64,000 nucleotides of DNA, from the NCBI RefSeq assembly GCF_054482595.1, contig NZ_CM137008.1; one strand, given 5' to 3'. The notes below the pieces were generated by a model. The model did not search any database, had not been told where the DNA came from, and saw only the letters and a list, made by a program, of their open reading frames with translations. Both the position numbers and the translations under genes were made by a program. This document shows, piece after piece, positions 4,824 to 63,161 of this stretch. Positions within the stretch are counted from its first letter, which is position 1. Every line of letters starts with the position of its first letter.

Positions 4824-4862
4824 AGATGACGGCAAAGCATATGCGCTAAGCCGTCAGTGACA

Positions 4863-5384: not shown

Positions 5385-5495
5385 AACGTAAGCTTCTCGA
5401 TTCTGCTGTGGCTTTTGCGGCTAGTGTATCAGAATCGCTTTAGTCACGGCACAATAAGGCATAATGGATCAAATGAGTGACCATAAGGGGCGCAA

Positions 5496-6392: not shown

Positions 6393-6416
6393 TGTCTGAA
6401 AAGAACGGGAAGATTT

Positions 6417-7127: not shown

Positions 7128-7132
7128 TTCGC

Positions 7133-16226: not shown

Positions 16227-16714
16227 TGAAATCGTTAATTATCGTTAATCCGGCTGACTGTATTGGCTGCCGTACTTGTGAAGTGGCCTGTGTGGTCGCT
16301 CACCCTTCAGAACAAGAGTTGAATGCCGATGTCTTTTTACCCCGGCTGAAGGTACAGCGACTGGACTGCATCAGTGCGCCGGTGATGTGCCATCAGTGTG
16401 AAAACGCCCCTTGTGTTGGCGCTTGCCCCGTGGGGGCGCTGACGATGGGCGAGCAGGTGGTGCAGACCAATTCTGCCCGTTGTATTGGCTGTCAGAGTTG
16501 CGTCAGTGCGTGCCCGTTTGGAATGATCACCATTCAGTCGTTGCCGGGGGATACCCGGCAACAAATCGTGAAATGCGATCTCTGTGAACAGCGGGAAGAG
16601 GGGCCTGCCTGCGTTGAATCTTGCCCAACACAGGCGCTGCAGTTGCTTACTGAAAGAGAACTCAGGCGAGTCCGCCAGCAGCGTATTGTTGCCAGCGGTG
16701 AGAATCCTCTGTGA
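16223..16714 (+). CDS. ygfS: 4Fe-4S dicluster ferredoxin-type protein
   Basis: 163-aa ORF with four Cys clusters; overlaps the ygfT stop by 4 nt. Confidence 0.88.
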
Positions 16715-16722
16715 AAGAAATC

Positions 16723-16744
16723 TCCGCGCTGAAAGGCGCGGAGA
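16723..16744. terminator. Bidirectional terminator hairpin between ygfS and ghxQ
   Basis: ctccgcgc-tgaaag-gcgcggag perfect 8-bp inverted repeat between convergent genes. Confidence 0.6.
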
Positions 16745-16749
16745 ATCTA

Positions 16750-18117: not shown

Positions 18118-18152
18118 AATGATGTCCTCACGAGGATGTAAAAGTTTTATTA

Positions 18153-19472: not shown

Positions 19473-19486
19473 TGACTCCTTTACTG

Positions 19487-20887
19487 TTAATCCATATCTT
19501 CCGCTGAGGTAATACCAGGCAGAACGTTTTCCTGTCGGTAGCCACCAGGGAGGATAATATTTAATAAAATCGCAGTTAACCCGCCAGCACAAATAGGGTT
19601 TTCAACTAATACATAAATAGAGGCTGGCAATATTTTAAAAATTTCGGGATCGTAGGAGACGCCAAGCCCTAAACCTAAAGAAGTGGCGACAATAAGTGTT
19701 TCACGCCGCTTTAATCCGTTGGTGATGATGATGCGAATCCCAGCGATGGCAATCATGGAAAACATCAACGTCATTGCGCCTCCCAGAACTGCCGAGGGAA
19801 TGGTCGTGAAGAAGCCGCCAATCATCGGAAATAAGCCGAGGATAACCAGCATTACCGCGATGGTTCGCCCGACATAACGTGAAGCGACGCCAGTCATCTG
19901 AATAACCCCATTATTTTGCGCAAACGTGGTTAATGGTAATGAACCAACAGCGGAGGCGATAACAGAAACCAGACCATCTGCCAGCACGCCGCCTTTCAGT
20001 CGGGACTGATACTCTTCCCCCTGAATGGGGCGGCGGGAAACCATTGCCGTGGCGGTGATATCGCCGACTGCTTCCAGCACGCTAAGCAGATAAATCGTGC
20101 CAACCACCAGGAACTGATGGAAGCTAAAACTAAAGCCGTATTTGAACGGATGTGGGATGGTGATTAACGGCAAATTGCGCATACTGCTGAAATCCACCAT
20201 GCCCAGGCATAACGATGCGATATAGCCGACACATAGCCCAATGGCGATCCCTCCCATGCGTAGCAACGGACTGCGACAGCAGTTAAAGCCGATCACCACA
20301 ATCAAAACCAATAAACCAACGCCGAGATGTTCGTAATTGCCGAACGTACCGCTGCTTTTGGCTGCAAATCCTCCACCAAAATCGATAATGCCGACTTTAA
20401 TCAGGCTTAAGCCGATCATCAGTACCACAATACCGCTGACAGTAGGCGTAATAACCCGACGTAAATAGGGCAGGATAAAAGAAGAGCCGACAACCAGAAA
20501 TGCGCCAACGAAGGAGACGCCGAGAAGCGACGACATGATTAACTCTTCGTGAAAACCGTCGCTTTTCATGCTGCTGCCCAGCGCAATCATGACCGTAACA
20601 AATGAAAAATTGACTGACTGAATTGAGAGTAGGCCAGAACCGACGATGCCGTAGCGGTTTACTTGTAACCAGGTACCAATACCAGAGGCGATCATCGCCA
20701 TAGAAACAAGATAGGCGGTTGTTTCAGCGGAAAGCTGTAAGGCCGCACCCACGATTAACGCGGGGGTTACCATCGGAACGAAAATTGCCAACAGATGGGT
20801 AATGGCACCAACGAGAGCCTGATGAAAGGGAGGGCGATCCTCCAGTTCAAATATAAGGTCAGAACCTGCATGGTTTATATCAGACAT
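19487..20887 (-). CDS. xanQ: Xanthine permease (NCS2 family)
   Basis: Supplied ORF 19487-20944; start trimmed to MSDINHAGSDLIFELEDRPP (20887). Confidence 0.9.
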   Translation of the reverse strand: MSDINHAGSDLIFELEDRPPFHQALVGAITHLLAIFVPMVTPALIVGAALQLSAETTAYLVSMAMIASGIGTWLQVNRYGIVGSGLLSIQSVNFSFVTVMIALGSSMKSDGFHEELIMSSLLGVSFVGAFLVVGSSFILPYLRRVITPTVSGIVVLMIGLSLIKVGIIDFGGGFAAKSSGTFGNYEHLGVGLLVLIVVIGFNCCRSPLLRMGGIAIGLCVGYIASLCLGMVDFSSMRNLPLITIPHPFKYGFSFSFHQFLVVGTIYLLSVLEAVGDITATAMVSRRPIQGEEYQSRLKGGVLADGLVSVIASAVGSLPLTTFAQNNGVIQMTGVASRYVGRTIAVMLVILGLFPMIGGFFTTIPSAVLGGAMTLMFSMIAIAGIRIIITNGLKRRETLIVATSLGLGLGVSYDPEIFKILPASIYVLVENPICAGGLTAILLNIILPGGYRQENVLPGITSAEDMD

Positions 20888-21051
20888 CCCTTCACTCCTT
20901 TTAAAGTAAATTTGATCATCTGAATTAGTAAAATAAATTCCCACGAATTTGGGGCGCAGGACGCCTTGAGAACGGCTTATCTCATTTTCGCAGTCACTAT
21001 TTAGTCATCGTTCAAACAGAGAAACAGGCCGCCGAAGCGGCCATTTATTAC

Positions 21052-23922: not shown

Positions 23923-24698
23923 ACGGCTTCCTCCCCAGCCTGTTGGCAGTCGGCATACAGGTCGGCTACCAGAACTCCCGTGATATAGCGTTTATAGGCC
24001 ACGCTGCCCCGCAAATCTTCCTGCGGGAAAATGGCGTTGGCGACAGCCTGTTCAAGTGCATTGCCTTCCAGATTTTGTTTTTCGACATCGTGCAGACGCA
24101 GTGCTTTACTGGCGACGCCATCCAGCGCAATTCGCATACCGTCGTGGTCTGTCATTGCAACGGCTGCCGTCACGACGGTTAAACCTGCCTGAGAACGGCT
24201 AATTTTCCGGGTCGCACAGGTGCGATACGGATCTTTAATGATAATTTCGGTTAGCAGGCGATCGCATGGGCAGGCCAGGTAGTCCTCGATTGACAGCGTT
24301 TCGCCGTTGCCAAAAACCAGTTCAGCATCCAGTGCCAGCAGGACGGGAAGCAGCACCGACTCTTCCTGGCGGGCGGCGATTTCACCACCAATGGTCGACT
24401 GATTACGAACATGGCGTGAGTAAACAAAACCGAGGGCTTCACGCAGCGCTGCAGGAATAAATCGCGCATCACGCAGTGGCTGCAAGCGAGACATTGCGCC
24501 AATCCGCAGTGCACCGTTATCCCAGTCAACCCAGTCTAGCTCCAGATCCTGTAAGGAAATGGCAATCTTTTTATCGGTACGGGTTGGTGTAGCATTGAGT
24601 TTGCTGCCCCCGGCGAACCAGACGGCTTCATCCTGGTAGCGGCGCTTCAGTTCCAGCGCCTGTTCGACAGAGTCGGGCCTGAAAAATTGTTCAATCAT
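23919..24698 (-). CDS. ygfM: FAD-binding subunit of molybdo-hydroxylase (CO dehydrogenase flavoprotein-like)
   Basis: 259-aa ORF; 4-nt overlap with the xdhD start; K-12 synteny. Confidence 0.88.
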   Translation of the reverse strand: MIEQFFRPDSVEQALELKRRYQDEAVWFAGGSKLNATPTRTDKKIAISLQDLELDWVDWDNGALRIGAMSRLQPLRDARFIPAALREALGFVYSRHVRNQSTIGGEIAARQEESVLLPVLLALDAELVFGNGETLSIEDYLACPCDRLLTEIIIKDPYRTCATRKISRSQAGLTVVTAAVAMTDHDGMRIALDGVASKALRLHDVEKQNLEGNALEQAVANAIFPQEDLRGSVAYKRYITGVLVADLYADCQQAGEEAV

Positions 24699-24748
24699 CT
24701 TCTTTCCTTATTTAACCCTCTTCCCTGCGGGAAGAGGGCATCTGTCAT

Positions 24749-26077
24749 TTATGCCAGCGCATCCATCCGACGCCACATACTGGCAGCGGCTTTTCTGGCT
24801 TGTGCATAAATGGAATCGCAATCGAAGTTAAACTGACGGTCTTCATAGACCATCACACCATTGACCATCACGCTGTGAACGCTGCCTGAGCCCATACCGA
24901 AAGCGATATGCCCGGCGATATTGTCTGCCAGCAGCGGCGTCGGCGAGTTGTAATCGCAAATGGTTAAATCAGCTTTGTAACCGGCTTCCAGAAGCCCAAA
25001 TTTCGCGCCAAAGTTGCGGCTCATCAGTTCGTTACCGTTAGTCAGGGCTTTGGCAAAACTGTCAGGCCACAGCGGACCACCCGCATCGCGATGTTTAAAG
25101 AAGGCAAATTTCATCTCTTCAAACATGTCCGAACCAATGCCGTCCGTTCCCAACGCCAGATTGCGGATGTCGCTAAGGTGATGGTTGTAGCCGACATGGT
25201 TGTTCATGTTTGAACGGGCGTTATGCACCAGGAACGCATCGCGCTGATTGAGTAGGGTGATGTCATCTTTCGACAAGTACAGCCCATGAGCGACCAGTGT
25301 TTTGCTGTCGATGAGATCGAATTGCGCCAGTCGTGCCAGCAGGTCTTTGCCGTACCAGTGGTGACTGTAGGAAACGTCGTAAAGGTCTTCCGCAGCGTGA
25401 ATATGCAAACCACGGCCTGTGGCTTTCACGGCTTCACGCAGCATCTCCAGACCGGCATCTGGCACGGTAAACGGCGCGTGAGCACCGATATGTGCTTCCA
25501 CCAGATACGGCTCGGTTGCTGCTTTCTTCGCCTCATCAATCTGACGGGCGAAGCGGATGTTTTCTTCTACACCTTCCTGCAACTCTTTGATGCCGTTGTT
25601 ACGGTCAGTAGTTTCAAAACAGGTCATCGCGCGCAGGCCAACTTTTAAAAATGCGTCGCGCAATGTGGAGAGCGACCCGCCGATATACGCCGGAGAGGCA
25701 TGGTGATCGATAACCGATGTACATCCGCTCTTAATCGCTTCCAGGGAACAAATCAGTCCGCTGTAATAGAGCGACTCTTCATCAAGGGCGCGATCGAGCC
25801 GCCACCAGAGATTTTTCAGCGTTGAGATGAAATCCGGGCAAGGGGCGATGTTTGCCATAATTCCGCGGGAAAGCCCCGAGTAAAAATGGTTGTGCGAGCA
25901 GACAATCCCTGGCATCACAATCCGGCCATGCATCTCTTTGAAGCTGGCGTCGGGGTAGCGTTGCGTCAGGGCATCGCCGATAGCGACAATCACATCGTTT
26001 TCGATGGCGATATCAACGCCTTCCTGCACTTTTGCCGGGTGTAGCTGTACCGCAGTGACATTCTTCAGAATCAACAT
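24749..26077 (-). CDS. ssnA: Amidohydrolase-family protein SsnA (chlorohydrolase / aminohydrolase-like)
   Basis: Supplied ORF 24749-26143; start trimmed to MLILKNVTAVQL (26077), giving an ATGA overlap with the ygfK stop; HxH metal-binding motif (CSHNHFYS). Confidence 0.88.
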   Translation of the reverse strand: MLILKNVTAVQLHPAKVQEGVDIAIENDVIVAIGDALTQRYPDASFKEMHGRIVMPGIVCSHNHFYSGLSRGIMANIAPCPDFISTLKNLWWRLDRALDEESLYYSGLICSLEAIKSGCTSVIDHHASPAYIGGSLSTLRDAFLKVGLRAMTCFETTDRNNGIKELQEGVEENIRFARQIDEAKKAATEPYLVEAHIGAHAPFTVPDAGLEMLREAVKATGRGLHIHAAEDLYDVSYSHHWYGKDLLARLAQFDLIDSKTLVAHGLYLSKDDITLLNQRDAFLVHNARSNMNNHVGYNHHLSDIRNLALGTDGIGSDMFEEMKFAFFKHRDAGGPLWPDSFAKALTNGNELMSRNFGAKFGLLEAGYKADLTICDYNSPTPLLADNIAGHIAFGMGSGSVHSVMVNGVMVYEDRQFNFDCDSIYAQARKAAASMWRRMDALA

Positions 26078-50457: not shown

Positions 50458-50477
50458 GGCCGGAAGAGGAGATGACT

Positions 50478-51041
50478 ATGGCGATTTTTGGCTACGGGCG
50501 CGTTTCGACATCGCAGCAGGATACTGAGAACCAGCGTTTGGAACTTGAGCAAGCTGGATGGACTTTCGACTTTTGGTTTACTGATGTTGTTAGCGGGAAG
50601 GTTCCTGCGCTGCAACGCAAAGCGTTTTCCGAAATGCTCAGCAAAATCCGCGATGGTGAAACGCTGGTTGTTGCCAAACTCGACCGACTGGGACGCGATG
50701 CGATTGATGTTCTCCAGACTGTCAGGGCGATGGCCGAGCGTAATATCAAGGTCATTGTCCACCAGCTTGGCACAACGGATCTCTCCTCTGCTGCCGGTAA
50801 ACTTCTGTTGTCGATGCTGTCAGCAGTTGCGGAGATGGAACGTGACCTACTGATTGAGAGGACCCATGCGGGTTTGTTGCGGGCAAAAGCTGAAGGCAAG
50901 AAGCTGGGAAGACCGTCGAAAATCGCCCCAGAAGTCCATAGGCTGATTATTGAGAAAAAGAATAATGGAGCCAGTGTCAGCGCACTAGCGAGGGAGTATG
51001 GCGTTTCCAGAGCGACTATAGCTGCACTATTAGATTATTAG
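50478..51041 (+). CDS. Serine recombinase (resolvase / DNA-invertase family)
   Basis: Supplied ORF 50472-51041; N-terminal GYGRVSTSQQ catalytic-Ser motif, KLDRLGRD, C-terminal HTH; second ATG at 50478 has better SD spacing. Confidence 0.88.
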   Translation: MAIFGYGRVSTSQQDTENQRLELEQAGWTFDFWFTDVVSGKVPALQRKAFSEMLSKIRDGETLVVAKLDRLGRDAIDVLQTVRAMAERNIKVIVHQLGTTDLSSAAGKLLLSMLSAVAEMERDLLIERTHAGLLRAKAEGKKLGRPSKIAPEVHRLIIEKKNNGASVSALAREYGVSRATIAALLDY

Positions 51042-51127
51042 CAATTTAGATTTTTATTACAACTTCTGAATGGCAAGAGTGCTAATCTTGGAGAGTAAAA
51101 GCCCCCAAATGGGGGCTAAGTTAATAA

Positions 51128-52903
51128 CTAATAATGGACGTTTGCGATGAATTGAGGGAGAAGTTCTTTAAAATCATCTCTATACATATCCATATCACTC
51201 TGGAAACGAGAGATTATTTCTGTAATTTCTTTGCTTTTGGATAATCTTCCTGCTGTAGCTGGTTCTAACAGTGCAGATCTTGTTAATACCCTTTTTATTA
51301 CAGGGATCCATAACTCCTTCGCATTTTCTCTATTGACGCCATCTTTGAAGGATAATGAATATTTATTAGGTATCGCTGAACCTAATATTATTTCCAATAT
51401 GCTTGCTATAGCATGAATCATTAACAGTGATACGCCAGGTTGGGTCAATAGCTTATGTTTAATAGTATCTATTTCAGGAAGCTGGTTATGCCTAAATTGT
51501 TCATTAAAATCCGATTTTATCTGGCTTATAGCTTCATTTAAAGAATAGACAAAGATAATATGACCTAGAGTAATTGTATCATCAAAAGCCTTTTTATAGA
51601 GATCCTCATCATCCCAAATATCTTTTTTTCGATGATATGCACTTGTAGGATGAGCATGAAAAGCGATCAGGATTTGTGCAACTGTATCCGTTGGTAATAA
51701 AATTCTTTTTTGAGCCGGAGTTAACACTTGGCGAAGGCCACCTGTATATAAAGCTTCCTTATTTTTCTCGAAATCCTTTCTTAATCTTTTTTGTATAGAA
51801 TCACTGGAGCGAAAATCTGAGCGCAAGACCTTGTTTTGTGAATTATTCGCTAGAGTGATTTCATTAATTAGTTCGGGATTATTAACTCTTATGAACCTAA
51901 TTGCAACTCTTAGCGTATCATCTGGATCTTTCCCTAAATTTGAAATACTACCAGTAGTTTGAGCACCATTGACAATAGAAATACCAGTAACACTTTTAAT
52001 TTGACCGAGTGTTTTGGATTCGTCAATGAAATCAATTTCAAAATCATGGACTAAGGCAGTGATTCCGTTATTAAATACAAAGAAATTTCCTGGGTGTGTT
52101 TTAGCCGTGTTTTGTATTTCATTATTTATTGAGAGGTCTTTTTTATTACTTCCTAAATAAGACCTTACATTAGCGCTGAATAGTTTATCTTCACCGTAGC
52201 TATTATATAGTTCTTTAATAAATTTCCCTGGCATAAGGGTAGAAAATGAGGCCCAGTTTTCATTAGAGTTTTGATAAAAGCCATGCATACCAGTCAGCGA
52301 TATTTTATCTGATATCAAAATTGGACTGTGTTGAGAGTTATATAATTCATCAAGTGAACTTAAACCCATTTGCTTGGAGCTTATTCTCAGGTTATCAATA
52401 TGATAAATTGAGTTTAATTTGTCCATAATTGAACGCCCAATCGAATGTAAAGGTTTCTCACATTCTGGTGTTTCAGGGCAGTTATGAACAAACCATACAT
52501 TTATTTTCTCAATTTCATTATTTCTTAAAGCATCTCTTGCATCTTTTACCTGATCCCTTATCCTCAGAGGTATATTCTCTATATCAGCGGAAAGCAACGC
52601 GGTTTCTGCATAAGCTGTTTCTTGGGCCTTAGACGGCTTGGCCCCTTGAGGTCGAAATATAGTAGATTGATAAGATTGTATAAGATATATTTGTTTGCTT
52701 TCTCTATCGGTCATTAATATGTCTATATTTTCATCATCTCCCCCTTCAGTTATTATGTCGGGAGCTATCAATTCAATGCTGTCTATATTGTTATGTAACT
52801 CTATTGCATATAATGCACAATTTAAATTACCATATTTTTCTAGATCTTTTCTCTGTTGCAATGCTGACCAGAAAGAACTATCTGAAAGCTGTGTATATGT
52901 CAT
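51128..52903 (-). CDS. Hypothetical 591-aa protein, candidate abortive-infection (AIPR-like) phage-defence protein
   Basis: Long uninterrupted ORF in a visibly AT-rich segment with A/T-rich codon usage unlike flanking core genes; no Walker A motif; family assignment by size/context only. Confidence 0.6.
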   Translation of the reverse strand: MTYTQLSDSSFWSALQQRKDLEKYGNLNCALYAIELHNNIDSIELIAPDIITEGGDDENIDILMTDRESKQIYLIQSYQSTIFRPQGAKPSKAQETAYAETALLSADIENIPLRIRDQVKDARDALRNNEIEKINVWFVHNCPETPECEKPLHSIGRSIMDKLNSIYHIDNLRISSKQMGLSSLDELYNSQHSPILISDKISLTGMHGFYQNSNENWASFSTLMPGKFIKELYNSYGEDKLFSANVRSYLGSNKKDLSINNEIQNTAKTHPGNFFVFNNGITALVHDFEIDFIDESKTLGQIKSVTGISIVNGAQTTGSISNLGKDPDDTLRVAIRFIRVNNPELINEITLANNSQNKVLRSDFRSSDSIQKRLRKDFEKNKEALYTGGLRQVLTPAQKRILLPTDTVAQILIAFHAHPTSAYHRKKDIWDDEDLYKKAFDDTITLGHIIFVYSLNEAISQIKSDFNEQFRHNQLPEIDTIKHKLLTQPGVSLLMIHAIASILEIILGSAIPNKYSLSFKDGVNRENAKELWIPVIKRVLTRSALLEPATAGRLSKSKEITEIISRFQSDMDMYRDDFKELLPQFIANVHY

Positions 52904-53053
52904 GATAAAACCCTTTTTATTAATATGTAAATTTTATCTCATTCTATCTAAAATCATTTTTTTATATCTAATGATATAACATTAAATGTATGTGAAATAT
53001 TTAATGGTATCTGCTATGCCTTTGTTTATTAAAGCACAGTCTTCAAATCAGGG

Positions 53054-53161
53054 TCAACCAAACCACAGTATATTATATCCAACTATTGGATGTCGGTAAG
53101 CGACTAAGGCTAGTTGAGGTAACACATAAATAATACAATACCTTAGGGTATTGAGTTTCAT
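53054..53161 (-). CDS. Possible small ORF (35 aa, hydrophobic) with strong Shine-Dalgarno
   Basis: Minus-strand GAAGGAGGGACAGG-ATG...TGA encoding [35 protein letters not shown]; lies between IS2 and the 591-aa gene; several rare codons, so may be non-coding. Confidence 0.2.
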
Positions 53162-53289
53162 CCTGTCCCTCCTTCTACGAACGTATCCACGCAGCGACTA
53201 GACTGGCCCCCTGAATCTCCAGACAACCAATATCACTTATTTAAGTGATAGTCTTAATACTAGTTTTTAGACTAGTCATTGGAGAGCAG

Positions 53290-53655
53290 ATGATTGATGT
53301 CTTAGGACCGGAGAAACGCAGACGGCGTACTACACAGGAAAAGATCGCTATTGTTCAGCAGAGTTTTGAACCGGGAATGACAGTCTCCCTTGTTGCCCGG
53401 CAACACGGTGTGGCAGCCAGCCAGTTATTTCTCTGGCGCAAGCAATACCAGGAGGGAAGTCTTACTGCTGTGGCCGCAGGAGAACAGGTCGTTCCTGCCT
53501 CTGAACTTGCTGCCGCCATGAAGCAGATTAAAGAACTCCAGCGCCTGCTCGGCAAAAAAACGATGGAAAATGAACTCCTTAAAGAAGCCGTTGAATACGG
53601 GCGTGCAAAAAAGTGGATAGCGCACGCGCCCTTATTGCCCGGGGATGGGGAGTAA
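53290..53655 (+). CDS. insC: IS2 transposase OrfA
   Basis: [41 protein letters not shown], matches remembered IS2 InsC. Confidence 0.95.
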
Positions 53656-54518
53656 GCTTAGTCAGCCGTTGTCTCCGGGTGTCGCGTGCGCAGTTGCACG
53701 TCATTCTCAGACGAACCGATGACTGGAAAGATGGTCGCCGCAGCCGTCACTCAGATGATACGGATGTGCTTCTCCGTATACACCATGTTATCGGAGAGCT
53801 GCCCACATATGGTTATCGTCGGGTATGGGCGCTGCTTCGCAGACAGGCCGAACTTGATGGTATGCCTGCGATCAATGCCAAACGTATTTACCGGATCATG
53901 CGCCAGAATGCGCTGTTGCTTGAGCGAAAACCCGCTGTACCGCCATCGAAACGGGCACATACCGGCAGAGTGGCTGTGAAAGAAAGTAATCAGCGATGGT
54001 GCTCTGACGGGTTCGAGTTCCGCTGTGATAACGGAGAAAAACTGCGAGTCACGTTCGCGCTGGACTGCTGTGACCGTGAGGCACTGCACTGGGCGGTCAC
54101 TACGGGCGGCTTCAACAGTGAAACAGTACAGGACGTCATGCTGGGAGCGGTGGAACGCCGTTTCGGCAACGAGCTTCCGGCGTCTCCAGTAGAGTGGCTG
54201 ACGGATAATGGTTCATGCTACCGGGCTAATGAAACACGGCAGTTTGCCCGGATGTTGGGGCTTGAACCGAAGAACACGGCGGTGCGGAGTCCGGAGAGTA
54301 ACGGCATAGCAGAGAGCTTCGTGAAAACGATAAAGCGTGACTACATCAGTGTCATGCCCAAACCAGACGGGTTAACGGCAGCAAAGAACCTTGCAGAGGC
54401 ATTCGAGCATTATAACGAATGGCATCCGCATAGTGCACTGGGTTATCGCTCGCCACGGGAATATCTACGGCAGCAAGCCAGTAATGGGTTAAGTGATAAC
54501 AGGTGTCTGGAAATATAG
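53613..54518 (+). CDS. insD: IS2 transposase OrfB (DDE integrase domain)
   Basis: 301-aa ORF overlapping insC in the -1 frame, matches remembered IS2 InsD. Confidence 0.95.
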
Positions 54519-54640
54519 GGGCAAATCCAGCGACTTCTTGAGCTTCGCCTGAAAAATTTGAAACCATGCGCTTGATGAGAATTGCATCTAGGTTACATTT
54601 GTGGGAACAGATCGTTGCTAGGGTAGCTATAAAATAAAAA

Positions 54641-55393
54641 TTATAATTTATTCATGCAGTTAGTGTAAATGAATGCCGCTGAAACCTGAGCATCTTGCTT
54701 GGGGTGTTCATATACATAGTCAACGAAGGTTTTATAGAGCGCAATCATCTGGGGTGTGACTTCGGACTTGCCATTCATATTATCGAGACGCTGATAATAG
54801 TCTGCTTTGGTCATTCCTCCGTTTCGGCCTTTGGTTACGTTTGCGGTGAATTGTGCTATACCCATACACATTTGATCTTTATGGTTATTCGTTTTATCCG
54901 GGTGAAGAGCACCTTCCAACACTTTATCACCGCTGATGGCATGTTGCGCCCACGCTGAATTGTTGGCGATAAACTTTTTGGAGCCGGTGGCAATACCGTA
55001 TTCGATGCGAATGCCATTATCGTGATAGCTACCGTCAGCATCTTTAGTCGCTAACTTTAGAGATATGCGGCAACCGGGGAGCGTTTTGTGTTCTTGCACC
55101 GAAGCAATAACGGTGTCTGTATCGCAATCAGCAAAGCTGTATGTGGGATTAACATAGGTATTCGTTTTGAGTAGTAACCCGGTTAAGCCGTTTTTATAGC
55201 CTTTTGCCGGTAGGGTTTTAAAGGCGTTACGGTCGCCATCCTTAATCGCTTCCCGAAACTGATCCATCCCAATGCGGATTGCCAGTTGATCGATGCTCTC
55301 GGCTGCATATGATGCAGATGATGTAGCGATTAATATGATGCTCAGCAAAAACTTGGCTGGAAAAACGGGTTTAATAATTCGTGTTTGTGACAT
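54641..55393 (-). CDS. Secreted protein of unknown function (signal peptide)
   Basis: Supplied ORF 54641-55492; probable start MSQTRIIKPVFPAKFLLSIILIATSSASYAAE (55393) with AAGGA SD; predicted signal peptide cleavage near SYA-AE; several Cys. Confidence 0.6.
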   Translation of the reverse strand: MSQTRIIKPVFPAKFLLSIILIATSSASYAAESIDQLAIRIGMDQFREAIKDGDRNAFKTLPAKGYKNGLTGLLLKTNTYVNPTYSFADCDTDTVIASVQEHKTLPGCRISLKLATKDADGSYHDNGIRIEYGIATGSKKFIANNSAWAQHAISGDKVLEGALHPDKTNNHKDQMCMGIAQFTANVTKGRNGGMTKADYYQRLDNMNGKSEVTPQMIALYKTFVDYVYEHPKQDAQVSAAFIYTNCMNKL

Positions 55394-55510
55394 GTTGTTA
55401 TCCTTCAGAATCCACCCCTGCGGTGATTTTAATCGCATGATAACGCTTTGATTCAAAATGTCACTATTGGAGCGTGGCTCTTTAGTGGACATCTAATCAA
55501 ATTCAGGAGG

Positions 55511-55975
55511 ATGAAAAAGACCCTTCGATTTTTATTTGGACAACGTGTTAAGGCTCTACGTATAGCCGCCGGAATGAGCCAGGAAGCGTTTGCTGATCGG
55601 TGTGGATTTGCGCGTAGCTATATGAGCCGCATTGAACGTGGTTGCTCTAACGCGTCTCTTGATGCGATTGAGGTATTGGCTGAAGCTTTAAGTGTTGAGC
55701 CTTGGCAATTGTTAGCGTCCGATTCTTCCGAAGATAGCGCCCCGGAATTGTTGGTTCCATACGCGGCCGATGGCTCGTGCTTTCATCCCGGACTAGCGAG
55801 CACGCGCGATGGTTCGTTTGGTGTAGGTGATAAAGCCGCTCAGAAGCGTTTTGGCTCGTTTTTAGAAGCATTAGAGTATCTACGTAACATGAAGACAGCA
55901 AAATGGCGCAGACCCAATTCTAGCGGCAACTGGGGTATCGTATCAGCGGTTCGTTGGGACAAGCTGAGAAAGTAG
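55511..55975 (+). CDS. HTH (XRE-family) transcriptional regulator with C-terminal domain of unknown function
   Basis: Supplied ORF 55448-55975; start at 55511 (AGGAGG + ATG); N-terminal LRIAAGMSQEAFADRCGFARSYMSRIERG helix-turn-helix; about 80-aa uncharacterised C-terminal extension. Confidence 0.75.
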   Translation: MKKTLRFLFGQRVKALRIAAGMSQEAFADRCGFARSYMSRIERGCSNASLDAIEVLAEALSVEPWQLLASDSSEDSAPELLVPYAADGSCFHPGLASTRDGSFGVGDKAAQKRFGSFLEALEYLRNMKTAKWRRPNSSGNWGIVSAVRWDKLRK

Positions 55976-56150
55976 CTCAGGTGTAAGTTTCAGATTTTAA
56001 ATTACTGAATAAATAAACAGCTACCACATGAGGTGAATGGCCGCACGTTTTATCTGGCACTGATAACTATCAGCATTCCTAAAACACCAAAATACGGGTG
56101 CGTTACGTAGGCGTTACAGTGGCGTTTCACTTCAGCAATGGAGAGTGCTT

Positions 56151-57023
56151 TTGAAAAATAATCATTTGATATCATATGGTTTCCTAACCTCGCTGAGTGA
56201 TATTGAATTACTGTCGCTTCACTCCGAAATTTTAACGCAGTTGCGTTTTAGAGGTGTCATTCGCACCAAGAATAATCCTGTTGGTGACTATGCTGAATGG
56301 CTGGTTTCTAATGCACTGGGTATGACTCTTCTCAGTAATTCGTCGGCGGGTGCTGATGCCATTGATGCTGATGGCCTGAAAGTGCAGATCAAAGCTAGGA
56401 GAGTTACGCCGGATAATCCTTCCCGGCAGCTTAGTGCCTTGCGTAACTATGAGGCAGCCGAATTTGATTATTTAATCGCGGTTATTTTCGATGAGACTTA
56501 CAACATTCTTGATGCTTACAAAATCCCACATGAAGTAATACGAGATTATGCACGGCATAGTGACCACGTTAACGCACATATCGTTAACCTCAAGGGCGCG
56601 ATTCTTACTGATCCCCGAGTTAGTTCCATCAAAGAAGACTTGATTGTCAGGAGTTCGGCTTCAGTCAATGAAGCGGCTATGCAAACCCTTCCACCCGAAC
56701 CTATGGAAGAGGTTTTGAATCAACCAGAGAAGATAACGAGTAGTGTTACCTTGGTCAGCCTCCTTAAGGCTATCGGGATGGAGTGCTTTGTAAACTACTA
56801 CCATCATTTTGCCGATTCAAATTTATCAAGCGCTGATATCATTGAGCAAATGCACTCACGTGAGGGTTACACAGAGAAAAGTTGCCGGGGCCGTCTCAGT
56901 AAAGCGCGAAAAGTGATCAGGGATGGTTTAAGTATTGAGGCTTTGACGTTGATCGCTGACTCTGGGCGAATACAAGATTCTGTCAGAAGTGACGCGCTAA
57001 AACTTATCAGCGTTCTGGAGTGA
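56151..57023 (+). CDS. Hypothetical protein with Mrr-like (PD-(D/E)xK) nuclease motif
   Basis: Supplied ORF 56145-57023 (GTG); TTG at 56151 has GGAGAG SD; residues about 47-87 GDYAEWLVSNALGMTLLSNSSAGADAIDADGLKVQIKARRV fit the Mrr-cat pattern (Asp cluster then Q-x-K); C-terminal about 150 aa unassigned. Confidence 0.6.
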   Translation: MKNNHLISYGFLTSLSDIELLSLHSEILTQLRFRGVIRTKNNPVGDYAEWLVSNALGMTLLSNSSAGADAIDADGLKVQIKARRVTPDNPSRQLSALRNYEAAEFDYLIAVIFDETYNILDAYKIPHEVIRDYARHSDHVNAHIVNLKGAILTDPRVSSIKEDLIVRSSASVNEAAMQTLPPEPMEEVLNQPEKITSSVTLVSLLKAIGMECFVNYYHHFADSNLSSADIIEQMHSREGYTEKSCRGRLSKARKVIRDGLSIEALTLIADSGRIQDSVRSDALKLISVLE

Positions 57024-57076: not shown

Positions 57077-57539
57077 GGTAATGACTCCAACTTATTGATA
57101 GTGTTTTATGTTCAGATAATGCCCGATGACTTTGTCATGCAGCTCCACCGATTTTGAGAACGACAGCGACTTCCGTCCCAGCCGTGCCAGGTGCTGCCTC
57201 AGATTCAGGTTATGCCGCTCAATTCGCTGCGTATATCGCTTGCTGATTACGTGCAGCTTTCCCTTCAGGCGGGATTCATACAGCGGCCAGCCATCCGTCA
57301 TCCATATCACCACGTCAAAGGGTGACAGCAGGCTCATAAGACGCCCCAGCGTCGCCATAGTGCGTTCACCGAATACGTGCGCAACAACCGTCTTCCGGAG
57401 CCTGTCATACGCGTAAAACAGCCAGCGCTGGCGCGATTTAGCCCCGACGTATCCCCACTGTTCGTCCATTTCCGCGCAGACGATGACGTCACTGCCCGGC
57501 TGTATGCGCGAGGTTACCGACTGCGGCCTGAGTTTTTTA
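57077..57539 (-). mobile_element. IS1 remnant (about 463 bp, truncated by IS26)
   Basis: Begins with IS1 terminal repeat GGTAATGACTCCAACTTATTGATAGTG; encodes the C-terminal part of InsB (supplied ORF 57092-57586); IS1 sequence stops at the IS26 end. Confidence 0.9.
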
Positions 57540-58359
57540 GGCACTGTTGCAAAGTTAGCGATGAGGCAGCCTTTTGTCTTATTCAAAGGCCTTACATTTC
57601 AAAAACTCTGCTTACCAGGCGCATTTCGCCCAGGGGATCACCATAATAAAATGCTGAGGCCTGGCCTTTGCGTAGTGCACGCATCACCTCAATACCTTTG
57701 ATGGTGGCGTAAGCCGTCTTCATGGATTTAAATCCCAGCGTGGCGCCGATTATCCGTTTCAGTTTGCCATGATCGCATTCAATCACGTTGTTCCGGTACT
57801 TAATCTGTCGGTGTTCAACGTCAGACGGGCACCGGCCTTCGCGTTTGAGCAGAGCAAGCGCGCGACCATAGGCGGGCGCTTTATCCGTGTTGATGAATCG
57901 CGGGATCTGCCACTTCTTCACGTTGTTGAGGATTTTACCCAGAAACCGGTATGCAGCTTTGCTGTTACGACGGGAGGAGAGATAAAAATCGACAGTGCGG
58001 CCCCGGCTGTCGACGGCCCGGTACAGATACGCCCAGCGGCCATTGACCTTCACGTAGGTTTCATCCATGTGCCACGGGCAAAGATCGGAAGGGTTACGCC
58101 AGTACCAGCGCAGCCGTTTTTCCATTTCAGGCGCATAACGCTGAACCCAGCGGTAAATCGTGGAGTGATCGACATTCACTCCGCGTTCAGCCAGCATCTC
58201 CTGCAGCTCACGGTAACTGATGCCGTATTTGCAGTACCAGCGTACGGCCCACAGAATGATGTCACGCTGAAAATGCCGGCCTTTGAATGGGTTCATGTGC
58301 AGCTCCATCAGCAAAAGGGGATGATAAGTTTATCACCACCGACTATTTGCAACAGTGCC
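57540..58359 (-). mobile_element. IS26 (IS6 family), copy 1
   Basis: 820 bp bounded by GGCACTGTTGCAAA terminal inverted repeats (57540 and 58346-58359); carries tnp26. Confidence 0.95.
57592..58296 (-). CDS. tnpA: IS26 transposase Tnp26
   Basis: Supplied ORF 57592-58314; start [31 protein letters not shown] (234 aa). Confidence 0.95.
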
Positions 58360-58461
58360 TCCTTTTTGATAATCTCATGACCAAAATCCCTTAACGTGAG
58401 TTTTCGTTCCACTGAGCGTCAGACCCCGTATAGTGTTTTGCAGTTTAGAGGAGATATCGCG

Positions 58462-59322
58462 ATGCATACGCGGAAGGCAATAACGGAGGCGCTTCAAAAA
58501 CTCGGAGTCCAAACCGGTGACCTCTTGATGGTGCATGCCTCACTTAAAGCGATTGGTCCGGTCGAAGGAGGAGCGGAGACGGTCGTTGCCGCGTTACGCT
58601 CCGCGGTTGGGCCGACTGGCACTGTGATGGGATACGCGTCGTGGGACCGATCACCCTACGAGGAGACTCTGAATGGCGCTCGGCTGGATGACGAAGCCCG
58701 CCGTACCTGGCTGCCGTTCGATCCCGCAACAGCCGGGACTTACCGTGGGTTCGGCCTGCTGAATCAATTTCTGGTTCAAGCCCCCGGCGCGCGGCGCAGC
58801 GCGCACCCCGATGCATCGATGGTCGCGGTTGGTCCGCTGGCTGAAACGCTGACGGAGCCTCACGAACTCGGTCACGCCTTGGGGGAAGGATCGCCCGTCG
58901 AGCGGTTCGTTCGCCTTGGCGGGAAGGCCCTGCTGTTGGGTGCGCCGCTAAACTCCGTTACCGCATTGCACTACGCCGAGGCGGTTGCCGATATCCCCAA
59001 CAAACGGTGGGTGACGTATGAGATGCCGATGCTTGGAAGAGACGGTGAAGTCGCCTGGAAAACGGCATCGGATTACGATTCAAACGGCATTCTCGATTGC
59101 TTTGCTATCGAAGGAAAGCCGGATGCGGTTGAAACTATAGCAAATGCTTACGTGAAGCTCGGTCGCCATCGAGAAGGTGTCGTGGGCTTTGCTCAGTGCT
59201 ACCTGTTCGACGCGCAGGACATCGTGACGTTCGGCGTCACCTATCTTGAGAAGCATTTCGGAACCACTCCGATCGTGCCTCCGCACGAGGCCGTCGAGCG
59301 CTCTTGCGAGCCTTCAGGTTAG
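58462..59322 (+). CDS. aac(3)-II: Aminoglycoside N(3)-acetyltransferase, AAC(3)-II type (gentamicin/tobramycin resistance)
   Basis: Supplied ORF 58396-59322; from MHTRKAITEALQKLGVQTGDLLMVHASLKAIGPVEGG matches remembered AAC(3)-IIa/IId (286 aa); sub-variant not resolvable by eye. Confidence 0.9.
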   Translation: MHTRKAITEALQKLGVQTGDLLMVHASLKAIGPVEGGAETVVAALRSAVGPTGTVMGYASWDRSPYEETLNGARLDDEARRTWLPFDPATAGTYRGFGLLNQFLVQAPGARRSAHPDASMVAVGPLAETLTEPHELGHALGEGSPVERFVRLGGKALLLGAPLNSVTALHYAEAVADIPNKRWVTYEMPMLGRDGEVAWKTASDYDSNGILDCFAIEGKPDAVETIANAYVKLGRHREGVVGFAQCYLFDAQDIVTFGVTYLEKHFGTTPIVPPHEAVERSCEPSG

Positions 59323-59334
59323 AGGCCGTCGACA

Positions 59335-59547
59335 ATGATAATCTGGATCAACGGACCTTTCGGCGCCGGAAAGACGACGCTCGCTAAGCGGCTGCGCGAT
59401 CGGCGTTCCAAATCGCTGATCTTTGACCCCGAGGAAATCGGGTTCGTGGTGAAAGAAACGGTCCCCATGCCAGCGAGCGGAGACTATCAGGATCTCCCCT
59501 TGTGGAGGGGACTTACGATCGCGGCGGTCAGGGAGATTCGAAGGAAT
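59335..59547 (+). pseudogene. tmrB: Truncated tunicamycin-resistance gene tmrB (5' part only, cut by IS26)
   Basis: MIIWINGPFGAGKTTLAKRL P-loop N-terminus; reading frame runs into the IS26 terminal repeat at 59548. Confidence 0.8.
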
Positions 59548-60367
59548 GGCACTGTTGCAAATAGTCGGTGGTGATAAACTTATCATCCCCTTTTGCTGAT
59601 GGAGCTGCACATGAACCCATTCAAAGGCCGGCATTTTCAGCGTGACATCATTCTGTGGGCCGTACGCTGGTACTGCAAATACGGCATCAGTTACCGTGAG
59701 CTGCAGGAGATGCTGGCTGAACGCGGAGTGAATGTCGATCACTCCACGATTTACCGCTGGGTTCAGCGTTATGCGCCTGAAATGGAAAAACGGCTGCGCT
59801 GGTACTGGCGTAACCCTTCCGATCTTTGCCCGTGGCACATGGATGAAACCTACGTGAAGGTCAATGGCCGCTGGGCGTATCTGTACCGGGCCGTCGACAG
59901 CCGGGGCCGCACTGTCGATTTTTATCTCTCCTCCCGTCGTAACAGCAAAGCTGCATACCGGTTTCTGGGTAAAATCCTCAACAACGTGAAGAAGTGGCAG
60001 ATCCCGCGATTCATCAACACGGATAAAGCGCCCGCCTATGGTCGCGCGCTTGCTCTGCTCAAACGCGAAGGCCGGTGCCCGTCTGACGTTGAACACCGAC
60101 AGATTAAGTACCGGAACAACGTGATTGAATGCGATCATGGCAAACTGAAACGGATAATCGGCGCCACGCTGGGATTTAAATCCATGAAGACGGCTTACGC
60201 CACCATCAAAGGTATTGAGGTGATGCGTGCACTACGCAAAGGCCAGGCCTCAGCATTTTATTATGGTGATCCCCTGGGCGAAATGCGCCTGGTAAGCAGA
60301 GTTTTTGAAATGTAAGGCCTTTGAATAAGACAAAAGGCTGCCTCATCGCTAACTTTGCAACAGTGCC
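59548..60367 (+). mobile_element. IS26 (IS6 family), copy 2, inverted relative to copy 1
   Basis: 820 bp bounded by GGCACTGTTGCAAA repeats (59548 and 60354-60367); transposase protein identical to copy 1. Confidence 0.95.
59611..60315 (+). CDS. tnpA: IS26 transposase Tnp26
   Basis: Supplied ORF 59593-60315, same protein as 57592-58296 on the opposite strand. Confidence 0.95.
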   Translation: MNPFKGRHFQRDIILWAVRWYCKYGISYRELQEMLAERGVNVDHSTIYRWVQRYAPEMEKRLRWYWRNPSDLCPWHMDETYVKVNGRWAYLYRAVDSRGRTVDFYLSSRRNSKAAYRFLGKILNNVKKWQIPRFINTDKAPAYGRALALLKREGRCPSDVEHRQIKYRNNVIECDHGKLKRIIGATLGFKSMKTAYATIKGIEVMRALRKGQASAFYYGDPLGEMRLVSRVFEM

Positions 60368-60436
60368 GGATTGAATATAACCGACGTGACTGTTACATTT
60401 AGGTGGCTAAACCCGTCAAGCCCTCAGGAGTGAATC

Positions 60437-61342
60437 ATGACCGTAGTCACGACCGCCGATACCTCCCAACTGTACGCACTTGCAGCCCGACATGGGCTCA
60501 AGCTCCATGGCCCGCTGACTGTCAATGAGCTTGGGCTCGACTATAGGATCGTGATCGCCACCGTCGACGATGGACGTCGGTGGGTGCTGCGCATCCCGCG
60601 CCGAGCCGAGGTAAGCGCGAAGGTCGAACCAGAGGCGCGGGTGCTGGCAATGCTCAAGAATCGCCTGCCGTTCGCGGTGCCGGACTGGCGCGTGGCCAAC
60701 GCCGAGCTCGTTGCCTATCCCATGCTCGAAGACTCGACTGCGATGGTCATCCAGCCTGGTTCGTCCACGCCCGACTGGGTCGTGCCGCAGGACTCGGAGG
60801 TCTTCGCGGAGAGCTTCGCGACCGCGCTCGCCGCCCTGCATGCCGTCCCCATTTCCGCCGCCGTGGATGCGGGGATGCTCATCCGTACACCGACGCAGGC
60901 CCGTCAGAAGGTGGCCGACGACGTTGACCGCGTCCGACGCGAGTTCGTGGTGAACGACAAGCGCCTCCACCGGTGGCAGCGCTGGCTCGACGACGATTCG
61001 TCGTGGCCAGATTTCTCCGTGGTGGTGCATGGCGATCTCTACGTGGGCCATGTGCTCATCGACAACACGGAGCGCGTCAGCGGGATGATCGACTGGAGCG
61101 AGGCCCGCGTTGATGACCCTGCCATCGACATGGCCGCGCACCTTATGGTCTTTGGTGAAGAGGGGCTCGCGAAGCTCCTCCTCACGTATGAAGCGGCCGG
61201 TGGCCGGGTGTGGCCGCGGCTCGCCCACCACATCGCGGAGCGCCTTGCGTTCGGGGCGGTCACCTACGCACTCTTCGCCCTCGACTCGGGTAACGAAGAG
61301 TACCTCGCTGCGGCGAAGGCGCAGCTCGCCGCAGCGGAATGA
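60437..61342 (+). CDS. mph(A): Macrolide 2'-phosphotransferase Mph(A)
   Basis: 301-aa ORF MTVVTTADTSQLYALAARHGLKLHGPLTVNELGLDYRIV matches remembered Mph(A); high-GC segment. Confidence 0.93.
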   Translation: MTVVTTADTSQLYALAARHGLKLHGPLTVNELGLDYRIVIATVDDGRRWVLRIPRRAEVSAKVEPEARVLAMLKNRLPFAVPDWRVANAELVAYPMLEDSTAMVIQPGSSTPDWVVPQDSEVFAESFATALAALHAVPISAAVDAGMLIRTPTQARQKVADDVDRVRREFVVNDKRLHRWQRWLDDDSSWPDFSVVVHGDLYVGHVLIDNTERVSGMIDWSEARVDDPAIDMAAHLMVFGEEGLAKLLLTYEAAGGRVWPRLAHHIAERLAFGAVTYALFALDSGNEEYLAAAKAQLAAAE

Positions 61343-62577
61343 GCGAACGTCGATATAGCCCGCTCGCGACGCTGTTCGCGGCGACCTTTCTCTTCCGGAT
61401 CGGCAACGCGGTGGCGGCCCTCGCGCTTCCATGGTTCGTCCTGTCTCATACAAAGAGCGCGGCCTGGGCGGGCGCCACGGCCGCTAGCAGCGTCATCGCG
61501 ACCATCATCGGCGCGTGGGTTGGTGGTGGCCTCGTCGATCGGTTCGGGCGCGCGCCCGTCGCATTGATCTCGGGTGTGGTGGGCGGCGTGGCCATGGCGA
61601 GCATCCCACTGCTCGATGCCGTTGGCGCCCTCTCGAACACTGGGCTGATCGCTTGCGTGGTGCTCGGTGCCGCGTTCGACGCACCCGGTATGGCCGCGCA
61701 GGACAGTGAGCTGCCCAAACTCGGCCACGTCGCCGGGCTCTCCGTTGAGCGCGTCTCGTCACTGAAAGCGGTGATCGGGAACGTCGCGATTCTAGGTGGC
61801 CCGGCCCTTGGGGGGGCCGCAATCGGCCTGCTTGGCGCTGCGCCAACGCTCGGGCTGACGGCGTTCTGCTCCGTCCTTGCAGGTCTGCTCGGCGCGTGGG
61901 TGCTTCCCGCGCGTGCCGCTCGGACGATGACCACGACGGCGACTCTCTCCATGCGCGCCGGCGTCGCTTTTCTCTGGAGCGAACCCCTGCTGCGCCCTCT
62001 CTTTGGTATAGTGATGATCTTCGTGGGCATCGTTGGCGCCAACGGCAGCGTCATCATGCCTGCGCTGTTTGTAGATGCAGGACGCCAAGTAGCAGAGCTC
62101 GGGCTGTTCTCCTCAATGATGGGGGCTGGTGGTCTCCTTGGCATTGCCATTCATGCGTCGGTCGGCGCCCGGATATCAGCGCAGAACTGGCTGGCGGTGG
62201 CATTTTGTGGCTCTGCGGTGGGCTCGCTTCTGCTTTCACAGTTGCCAGGCGTGCCGGTGCTGATGTTGTTGGGCGCGCTCGTGGGACTGCTGACCGGCTC
62301 AGTCTCTCCCATTCTCAACGCTGCCATCTACAACCGCACGCCGCCAGAACTTCTCGGCCGGGTACTCGGCACGGTCTCGGCGGTGATGCTGTCAGCCTCG
62401 CCCATGGTTATGCTTGCGGCCGGCGCGTTTGTCGACCTTGCTGGTCCGCTCCCTGGCCTCGTTGTATCGGCCGTGTTTGCGGGGCTCGTGGCTCTACTCT
62501 CGCTCCGTCTTCAATTTGCTACAATGGCGGCGGCAGCCACAGCCTCCGCCCCAACCCATACAGAAGGTGAACACTGA
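61339..62577 (+). CDS. mrx(A): MFS-type hydrophobic protein Mrx(A)
   Basis: 412-aa polytopic membrane ORF overlapping the mph(A) stop by 4 nt, as in the mph(A) operon. Confidence 0.88.
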   Translation: MSERRYSPLATLFAATFLFRIGNAVAALALPWFVLSHTKSAAWAGATAASSVIATIIGAWVGGGLVDRFGRAPVALISGVVGGVAMASIPLLDAVGALSNTGLIACVVLGAAFDAPGMAAQDSELPKLGHVAGLSVERVSSLKAVIGNVAILGGPALGGAAIGLLGAAPTLGLTAFCSVLAGLLGAWVLPARAARTMTTTATLSMRAGVAFLWSEPLLRPLFGIVMIFVGIVGANGSVIMPALFVDAGRQVAELGLFSSMMGAGGLLGIAIHASVGARISAQNWLAVAFCGSAVGSLLLSQLPGVPVLMLLGALVGLLTGSVSPILNAAIYNRTPPELLGRVLGTVSAVMLSASPMVMLAAGAFVDLAGPLPGLVVSAVFAGLVALLSLRLQFATMAAAATASAPTHTEGEH

Positions 62578-63161
62578 TGCCCCGCCCCAAGCTCAAGTCC
62601 GATGACGAGGTACTCGAGGCCGCCACCGTAGTGCTGAAGCGTTGCGGTCCCATAGAGTTCACGCTCAGCGGAGTAGCAAAGGAGGTGGGGCTCTCCCGCG
62701 CAGCGTTAATCCAGCGCTTCACCAACCGCGATACGCTGCTGGTGAGGATGATGGAGCGCGGCGTCGAGCAGGTGCGGCATTACCTGAATGCGATACCGAT
62801 AGGCGCAGGGCCGCAAGGGCTCTGGGAATTTTTGCAGGTGCTCGTTCGGAGCATGAACACTCGCAACGACTTCTCGGTGAACTATCTCATCTCCTGGTAC
62901 GAGCTCCAGGTGCCGGAGCTACGCACGCTTGCGATCCAGCGGAACCGCGCGGTGGTGGAGGGGATCCGCAAGCGACTGCCCCCAGGTGCTCCTGCGGCAG
63001 CTGAGTTGCTCCTGCACTCGGTCATCGCTGGCGCGACGATGCAGTGGGCCGTCGATCCGGATGGTGAGCTAGCTGATCATGTGCTGGCTCAGATCGCTGC
63101 CATCCTGTGTTTAATGTTTCCCGAACACGACGATTTCCAACTCCTCCAGGCACATGCGTAA
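62577..63161 (+). CDS. mphR(A): TetR-family repressor MphR(A)
   Basis: 194-aa ORF with N-terminal TetR HTH (FTLSGVAKEVGLSRAALIQRFTNRDTLL); start overlaps the mrx stop. Confidence 0.9.
   Translation: MPRPKLKSDDEVLEAATVVLKRCGPIEFTLSGVAKEVGLSRAALIQRFTNRDTLLVRMMERGVEQVRHYLNAIPIGAGPQGLWEFLQVLVRSMNTRNDFSVNYLISWYELQVPELRTLAIQRNRAVVEGIRKRLPPGAPAAAELLLHSVIAGATMQWAVDPDGELADHVLAQIAAILCLMFPEHDDFQLLQAHA

Follow-up and report, generated by a model that had tools for sequence, protein, structure and literature searches.

The 64,000-nucleotide stretch of DNA analyzed here (contig NZ_CM137008.1 of the NCBI RefSeq assembly GCF_054482595.1), to which we refer as the window, carries a copy of the insertion element IS2 between two genes that are both read on the minus strand (Table 1). 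The element sits in a 401-bp spacer, of which 106 bp separate it from the stop codon of the upstream gene and 295 bp from the start of a gene for a 591-aa protein of the AIPR family. The original prediction, made from the sequence alone, had described an IS2 copy that separates a gene for a secreted protein from the 591-aa gene, with 295 bp between the element and the start codon of the latter (position 52903) and 37 bp between the element and that of a possible 35-aa ORF (position 53161); both the placement and the distances were borne out by our analysis. The upstream gene, 283 codons long when read from its first ATG, is called by PGAP as a 250-aa protein in a genome that lacks IS2 at this site, and this call corresponds to positions 54641..55393 of the window. 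By inspection, its product carries a Sec-type signal sequence, MSQTRIIKPVFPAKFLLSIILIATSSASYA/AE, with a hydrophobic core on the Kyte-Doolittle scale, and homologues with 82-88% nucleotide identity are present in 238 other genomes.

The 591-aa protein matches the Pfam family AIPR (PF10592) over residues 242-491 with a score of 119.1 bits (gathering threshold, 25; E = 4.1e-34) and the PADLOC model for AbiU over residues 39-467 (E = 1.7e-29). It is 100% identical to the protein cluster P0001, and its gene is annotated as 'AIPR family protein' in the genomes whose spacer is free of IS2. The lactococcal AbiUi protein confers phage resistance alone and looks nuclease-like (PMC13064643). Like AbiU (AbiUi) of Lactococcus lactis, the E. 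coli protein is a single large polypeptide of about 590 aa that is matched by the AIPR/AbiU models; unlike its lactococcal counterpart, it is encoded without an AbiUii-like partner. We regard it as a putative abortive-infection protein and as a member of a known defense family. Orthologues were collected from nine loci with 66-87% identity, found in Pantoea, Lonsdalea, Rahnella, MobA-type elements and P2-like prophages. These genes are solitary and occupy positions typical of defense cargo, namely in a P2-like prophage and in mobilisable elements, and several of them lie only 140-150 bp behind a co-oriented gene.

The wider setting is best seen in the IS2-free E. coli strain XH990, in which the genes follow in the order xdhCBA, actS, tRNA-Gly, a 647-aa integrase, a 338-aa hypothetical protein, a resolvase-type recombinase, the AIPR family protein (591 aa), a 250-aa hypothetical protein, an HTH protein, a DUF6998 protein and the ETT2 type III secretion genes. 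IS2 has inserted into the cargo slot of a small integrative island, which is located at tRNA-Gly and adjoins ETT2. The SpLE5 island of the O157:H7 strain Sakai possesses the same scaffold (resolvase, cargo, a protein of about 250 aa and an HTH protein) with other cargo genes. Related islands lose their homology two codons ahead of the end of the 250-aa gene's reading frame (its stop codon), and the AIPR gene, along with the 401-bp spacer upstream of it, is thus the variable cargo of an island family. Other mobile elements have left their traces in the vicinity: a truncated IS1 lies 2.5 kb to the right of IS2, where it abuts an IS26 and a resistance cluster, about 10 kb of the ETT2 region of XH990 are missing, and in two of 13 other carriers of the island an IS1-mediated inversion splits the AIPR gene.

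Table 1. Features of the IS2-containing spacer and its flanking genes, with positions in the 64-kb window.
Feature	Position	Strand	Basis or remark
AIPR-family/AbiU-like abortive-infection gene (putative), intact, 591 aa	51128..52903	-	Pfam AIPR, PADLOC AbiU
AIPR-proximal part of the 401-bp spacer, 295 bp, 32% G+C	52904..53198	-	
35-aa ORF, putative	53054..53161	-	AGGAGG at 53173..53168, with a gap of six bases to the ATG
Target-site duplication, left copy GCGAC	53194..53198	.	one GCGAC in the empty site
IS2, complete, IS3 family	53199..54529	+	1331 bp; 95.6% identical to K-12 IS2A
IRL, 42-bp left inverted repeat, 5'-TA start	53199..53240	+	alignment of both IS2 ends; faces the AIPR gene
orfA, 121 aa	53290..53655	+	Pfam HTH_Tnp_1; identical to K-12 InsC1
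A6G (AAAAAAG), predicted programmed -1 frameshift site for the OrfAB transposase	53607..53613	+	sequence; PMC3299598
orfB, 301 aa, -1 frame relative to orfA	53613..54518	+	Pfam HTH_21, rve, rve_3
IRR, 41-bp right inverted repeat, CA-3' end	54489..54529	+	carries the outward -35 element; directed at the 3' end of the 283-aa gene and not at the AIPR gene
Target-site duplication, right copy GCGAC	54530..54534	.	one GCGAC in the empty site
Distal 106 bp of the 401-bp spacer, cut off from the AIPR gene by IS2	54535..54640	-	
Promoter-like site TTTACA-18-TATAAT, 11 of 12	54669..54640	-	consensus match only
Upstream gene, 283-aa ORF from the first ATG	54641..55492	-	no Pfam family
Junction 30-mers of the IS2 insertion			TATCCACGCAGCGACTAGACTGGCCCCCTG and GGGGCAAATCCAGCGACTTCTTGAGCTTCG

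The element starts with TAGACTGGCCCCC and ends with GGGGCAAATCCA (in a longer readout, TAGACTGGCCCCCTGAATCTCC and GGAAATATAGGGGCAAATCCA), and it aligns end to end with IS2A of E. coli K-12 MG1655 (NC_000913, 381260-382590) with 59 substitutions and without a single indel. It shares with IS2A the length, the imperfect ends of 42 and 41 bp, the OrfA protein, the length of OrfB and a 5-bp target duplication. An alignment of its two ends to each other extends over about 42 bp, includes one gap and identifies them as imperfect inverted repeats; the first bases are TAGACTGG in IRL and TGGATTTG in the reverse complement of IRR. The OrfB protein differs from K-12 InsD1 at 10 residues (291/301 identical). 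The starts of orfA and orfB lie at 1 and 0 modulo 3, respectively, and the A6G motif occupies the same position as in IS2A. These properties correspond to the described architecture of IS2, with an IRL of 42 bp, an IRR of 41 bp and an A6G frameshift window (PMC3299598). A length of about 1.33 kb, an identity of at least 95%, ends of 42 and 41 bp, two overlapping ORFs, the A6G motif and a 5-bp duplication were all found, and the element can be assigned to IS2 by each of these sequence-level criteria. The original prediction of an intact IS2 accordingly holds for the full 1331 bp, both inverted repeats, orfA, the A6G site and orfB.

Nucleotide identity of at least 95% is the convention by which ISfinder delimits isoforms, and the 95.6% of the copy studied here comes close to this threshold. 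Copies that are 100% identical to it reside in many E. coli chromosomes and plasmids. Considering the best place in each of 7,738 records, matches of at least 99% identity occur in 383 records and those of 95-99% in 6,589, which places our copy in the less common, minority one of two IS2 sequence types. A weak inward promoter, PIRL, has been located just inside IRL, and the region of this end that is bound by OrfA comprises residues 39-48 (PMC3299598). Within this OrfA-binding region, just inside IRL, our copy differs from K-12 IS2A by carrying TT instead of AA at positions 42-43. All parts of the element that can be read from the sequence are intact, and identical copies are found at many sites in many genomes; these are indirect signs that the element may be competent for transposition (minicircle formation and production of OrfAB).

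How this copy of IS2 came to lie in the spacer can be read from genomes that lack it. An empty-site query was built from 800 bp of flanking DNA on either side of IS2, joined by one GCGAC, and was compared with all complete RefSeq genomes of E. coli. Ten complete genomes contain it uninterrupted with 100% identity over 1600 bp, an eleventh is 99.9% identical, and two more are 100% identical over 95% of the query. Besides XH990, the strains TUM18780 and APEC37 are examples of relatives with an empty site. Short-read assemblies from the Logan collection that encode an identical 591-aa protein likewise possess the empty 401-bp spacer. A query in which IS2 was kept, on the other hand, was found in none of the 5,426 complete E. 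coli genomes, none of which covers more than 55% of it. Strain XH990 and the window differ by one mismatch over 12.8 kb on the left side of IS2 and by 0 mismatches over 2.5 kb on its right side. Since the empty site is identical in ten genomes and the occupied site was found in 0 of 5,426, the insertion is a simple, recent and strain-specific transposition that is young relative to the divergence of the compared strains. The 5-bp direct repeat (a match that would arise by chance with a probability of about 1/1024) is a true target duplication, since the empty site carries exactly one GCGAC.

Given the IS-rich surroundings, with the truncated IS1 and the IS26 2.5 kb away, a resistance region, the missing part of ETT2, and the inversion by IS1 of part of the same island in two other strains, one might alternatively suspect that IS2 marks a rearrangement junction, i.e., the end of a composite transposon or the scar of an IS-mediated deletion or inversion, next to which GCGAC would be repeated by coincidence. 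We attach next to no probability to such an origin. In IS2-free genomes, the two flanks follow each other without a break, collinear and with 100% identity, and exactly one GCGAC is present at the join; no deletion or inversion tied to the insertion was detected in the comparison of the flanks with these genomes, and the window contains only a single IS2. The composite-transposon or rearrangement reading was consequently dropped on the evidence of the empty site. A perfect 5-bp direct repeat and a simple, recent transposition had both been proposed originally, with the comparison to IS2-free versions of the island as a check; this comparison uncovered a pre-existing unit with contiguous flanks, rather than unrelated sequence, and supports both proposals through the single GCGAC of the empty site and the identity of the collinear islands across it.

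A simple IS2 insertion into the spacer whose most likely effect is the insulation of the AIPR gene is the explanation of the locus as a whole in which we place considerable confidence. The transposase gene of IS2 is on the plus strand and both neighboring genes are on the minus strand. The outward -35 element of IS2 that has been used to activate ampC (Jaurin and Normark, 1983), acrEF and neoR via hybrid promoters resides in IRR, as reviewed in PMC9330008. The copy studied here resembles these cases in that it is also intergenic and upstream of a gene. In the hybrid-promoter cases, however, IRR abuts a resident -10 element and reads into the gene (PMC9330008), whereas here it is IRL that faces the AIPR gene, while IRR is antisense to the upstream gene, whose 3' end it faces, and neither junction is predicted to form a hybrid promoter. 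With the transposase oriented against its neighbors and with IRL on the side of the AIPR gene, IS2 cannot donate its outward -35 element to this gene.

In a promoter scan based on matches to the consensus, scored out of 12, no promoter-like site was found across either IS2 junction when the occupied locus was compared with the empty one, nor, on the minus strand, across the IRL junction or within 150 bp of IRL. Compared with the empty locus, the occupied one has gained a single promoter-like site, which lies deep within the element. Moreover, wild-type IS3-family ends that had been chosen for a mutational promoter screen, among them the right end of IS2, were without detectable promoter activity (PMC12095673). 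Since IRR faces away and no promoter-like site spans the junctions, hybrid-promoter activation of the AIPR gene by IS2 is unlikely.

Insertions of IS elements upstream of the bgl operon are able to break up H-NS-type silencing. The spacer and the AIPR gene, with 32% and 34% G+C, respectively, are DNA of the type bound by H-NS, into which IS2 brings 1.3 kb of 53% G+C, so that an increase in AIPR expression could also be envisioned by this route; binding of H-NS at the spacer, however, is pure conjecture. Whether by an outward or hybrid promoter or by a disturbance of silencing, we consider it improbable that IS2 raises the expression of the AIPR gene, and activation would be the least likely of the outcomes for this gene.

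On the far side of IS2, the promoter-like site TTTACA-18-TATAAT, which overlaps the upstream gene's stop codon, is directed toward IS2 and the AIPR gene. No other site with at least 11 of 12 matches is present on either strand of the entire 64-kb window, and a site of this quality is present in 4% of the shuffles of the local 601-bp region. In related islands, its -35 element lies within conserved coding sequence and its -10 element is absent, so that the complete site is specific to the cargo described here; that it might be a conserved feature of the scaffold was ruled out, only the -35 element being conserved. With IS2 in place, this site is cut off from the AIPR gene as well as from the 35-aa ORF.

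In the empty site, the stretch from the stop codon of the upstream gene to the AIPR gene holds no convincing terminator, the spacer RNA does not fold more stably than shuffled sequences (z = 0.54), and a scan of the empty spacer with Rfam gave no match. An attenuator or a riboswitch in the spacer was dropped from consideration because of this z-score. As there is neither a convincing terminator nor structure beyond chance in the empty site, read-through from the upstream gene is conceivable. The promoter scan returned no promoter-like site on the plus strand of the spacer.

The orientation of the present IS2 would be the polar one of the gal studies. IS2 is the source of a succession of Rho-dependent terminators in the classical polar insertion galEP3 (PMC3737525). 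As in the gal operon, the element is here placed between one or more putative promoters and a downstream gene, and a loss of read-through would be expected; unlike in galEP3, candidate promoters are also present downstream of the element. The single intact copy moved by the standard pathway of IS2: the OrfAB transposase, made by a -1 frameshift at the A6G site, copies out the element as a minicircle, which is then pasted into the target, here the AT-rich 401-bp spacer, under formation of the 5-bp target duplication. Transcription coming from the upstream gene and from the 54669..54640 site would since then have to cross 1.3 kb of antisense IS2, within which it is expected to stop, and the AIPR gene and the 35-aa ORF would be left to rely on any weak promoters in the remaining 295 bp. 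An altered promoter context of the AIPR gene and of the 35-aa ORF, which the original prediction had called probable, is plausible.

Transcription of the AIPR gene from a promoter of its own within the remaining 295 bp would render IS2 without consequence for either of its neighbors, a state of affairs to which we assign a probability slightly short of even. The AIPR ORF is untouched by IS2 and intact, and three minus-strand sites with 9-10 of 12 matches (53096..53067, 52970..52941 and 52931..52902) are preserved between the element and the ATG. One of them, 52970..52941, reads TAGATA-18-TAGAAT and would give rise to a leader of about 30 nt. These proximal sites are weak, however, and their number is at the level of chance in such AT-rich DNA; the scan found 6-7 sites where 3.3-4.0 are expected, about as many as shuffles give, and one of the AIPR-proximal sites overlaps the start codon. 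A weak hairpin followed by a T-rich run is situated at 53153..53136, on the AIPR side of IS2.

A comparison of the spacer within E. coli is uninformative on this point, since it is identical or 99.8% identical in all of the 13 carriers, and a search of plasmid sequences with the 401-bp spacer (blastn in distant mode) gave no match. Orthologues with 83-87% identity in MobA elements and a P2-like prophage are preceded by only about 140-150 bp of upstream DNA, which is itself unrelated. No promoter, leader or small ORF is conserved upstream of the nine AIPR orthologues, where similarity is lacking as far as the ribosome-binding site. Because this DNA bears no relationship to the E. coli spacer and is in several cases merely 140-150 bp long, the comparison argues that far-upstream DNA is not an obligatory part of the AIPR gene. 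Given these short and unrelated upstream regions, the promoter may quite possibly be proximal, which would make the insertion neutral. The orthologues also follow a co-oriented upstream gene, however, so that read-through may drive their expression as well, and read-through-driven expression would be equally compatible with the comparison. In our reading, IS2 would act as an insulator, and the outcome for AIPR expression would lie anywhere from neutral to a moderate reduction.

The 35-aa ORF on the AIPR side of the element deserves separate consideration. In the empty site, it would begin about 125 nt downstream of the 54669..54640 promoter-like site, with the IS2 insertion point exactly between the two, and it is the only place on either strand of the 64-kb window at which AGGAGG is followed by an ATG at a distance of 5-9 nucleotides. 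That such a strong start signal and an 11-of-12 site flank the insertion point is a noticeable coincidence. The gene finders used for the assemblies nevertheless did not call the ORF, and the peptide is only moderately hydrophobic. No homologue of the ORF is found upstream of the nine AIPR orthologues, and tblastn searches of plasmids and phages with the peptide returned matches at the level of chance only (E >= 3). Neither an Rfam-type partner nor an antisense promoter-like site was found for it. Its interpretation as a type I toxin or a leader peptide was not supported, as it showed no conservation and no antisense RNA or attenuator partner. As a gene, the putative 35-aa ORF is unproven, and the evidence against it is the stronger.

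From these observations, a more far-reaching scenario could be constructed, in which IS2 acts as a natural knock-down that uncouples the AbiU-like gene and a 35-aa leader or regulatory peptide from the promoter that drives them, thereby relieving the cell of the cost of a toxic defense gene. Such an event would parallel the IS1 inversion that splits the AIPR gene in two of the 13 other carriers. We judge this scenario to have only a slim chance of being correct. Selection for the silencing of the AIPR gene is a possible reading that the data do not require.

Taken for itself, the insertion holds nothing new: a known element has carried out an ordinary IS2 event next to a gene from a known defense family. 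It is a textbook example of a clean insertion for which the empty allele is at hand, of little importance beyond this particular strain, for which, or for the clone to which it belongs, it could serve as a marker. Insulation of the AIPR gene by IS2, if true, would be one more instance of a mobile element that tunes a costly phage-defense gene. More useful is the context in which the insertion occurred, i.e., small tRNA-linked islands with a fixed scaffold made up of a resolvase, cargo, a secreted protein and an HTH protein, whose cargo varies with the lineage of E. coli and here consists of an AbiU-like gene.

The 401-bp spacer into which IS2 inserted carries two signals that each occur once in the 64-kb window, namely an AGGAGG-N5-9-ATG arrangement and a sigma-70 consensus match of at least 11/12. 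They share a strand, with a spacing of about 125 nt at the empty site; in the window, IS2 separates them. Near its left end, the inserted copy differs from the reference copy: IS2 positions 36-53 read ATCACTTATTTAAGTGAT in the window versus ATCACTTAAATAAGTGAT in K-12 IS2A. These reads are reverse complements of each other; the arms of a near-palindrome have therefore been retained while its center was flipped. The near-palindrome overlaps the OrfA-binding residues reported at IS2 positions 39-48 (PMC3299598).

IS2 is not the only insertion sequence to have affected this locus. Santai and SM107, which are two of the 13 other carriers, have an AIPR gene broken into pieces of 432 and 144 amino acids by an inversion with an IS1 copy at each end. 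Its break is marked by a 9-bp overlap, the signature of intramolecular IS1 transposition, and a second insertion sequence has therefore struck the defense gene independently.

Right of the island follows a chromosomal resistance region, which starts with a truncated IS1 directly after the DUF6998 gene. About 10 kb of strain XH990 (15343-25414 of its locus, L001), comprising a GH15 gene, a ghoT-like gene and ETT2 sctC to sctN, are missing from the window. This loss is consistent with an IS1-adjacent deletion.

Features discussed in the text (window positions unless stated otherwise)
Feature	Position	Strand	Remark
Island scaffold	50472-55975
AIPR-splitting inversion	L002 (E. coli O157:H16 Santai) 2496-7890		corresponds to window ~52474-52482
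9-bp overlap	52474-52482
AGGAGG of start signal	53168-53173	minus
Variant IS2 stretch	53234-53251
Sigma-70 match	54640-54669	minus
HTH protein	55448-55975
DUF6998 protein	56145-57023
Truncated IS1	57077-57539		463 bp
Resistance region	57077-63161
IS26-type transposase	57592-58314	minus	next after truncated IS1
aac(3)-type aminoglycoside acetyltransferase	58396-59322		after IS26-type transposase
APH/MFS/TetR trio	60437-63161		resembles mph(A)-mrx-mphR

The same island may hold a second defense gene pair, as judged from profile matches of two adjoining gene products: the HTH protein scores against 'control protein' models of restriction-modification systems at E = 3e-18, and the DUF6998 protein against the PADLOC model of a type II methyl-directed restriction enzyme at E = 5e-70.

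Close AIPR orthologues (66-85% identity; loci L010, L011, L012 and L016) either directly follow a P2-type tail-fiber gene, lie between gpA and portal genes of P2-like type, or, on RepL-type elements, come after a gene for a MobA relaxase. The AIPR gene moves on its own, in cassette form, with various types of mobile element. The island scaffold, in turn, recurs in islands of 238 other E. coli genomes, exemplified by Sakai SpLE5 and strain SY3626 (L018 and L019), and consists of resolvase, cargo, signal-peptide protein of about 250 amino acids and HTH regulator; homology stops in the 250-aa gene, two codons short of its stop codon. Unrelated genes occupy the cargo slot in these 238 genomes, and the slot looks like a cargo, perhaps defense, hotspot of a family of small integrative elements.
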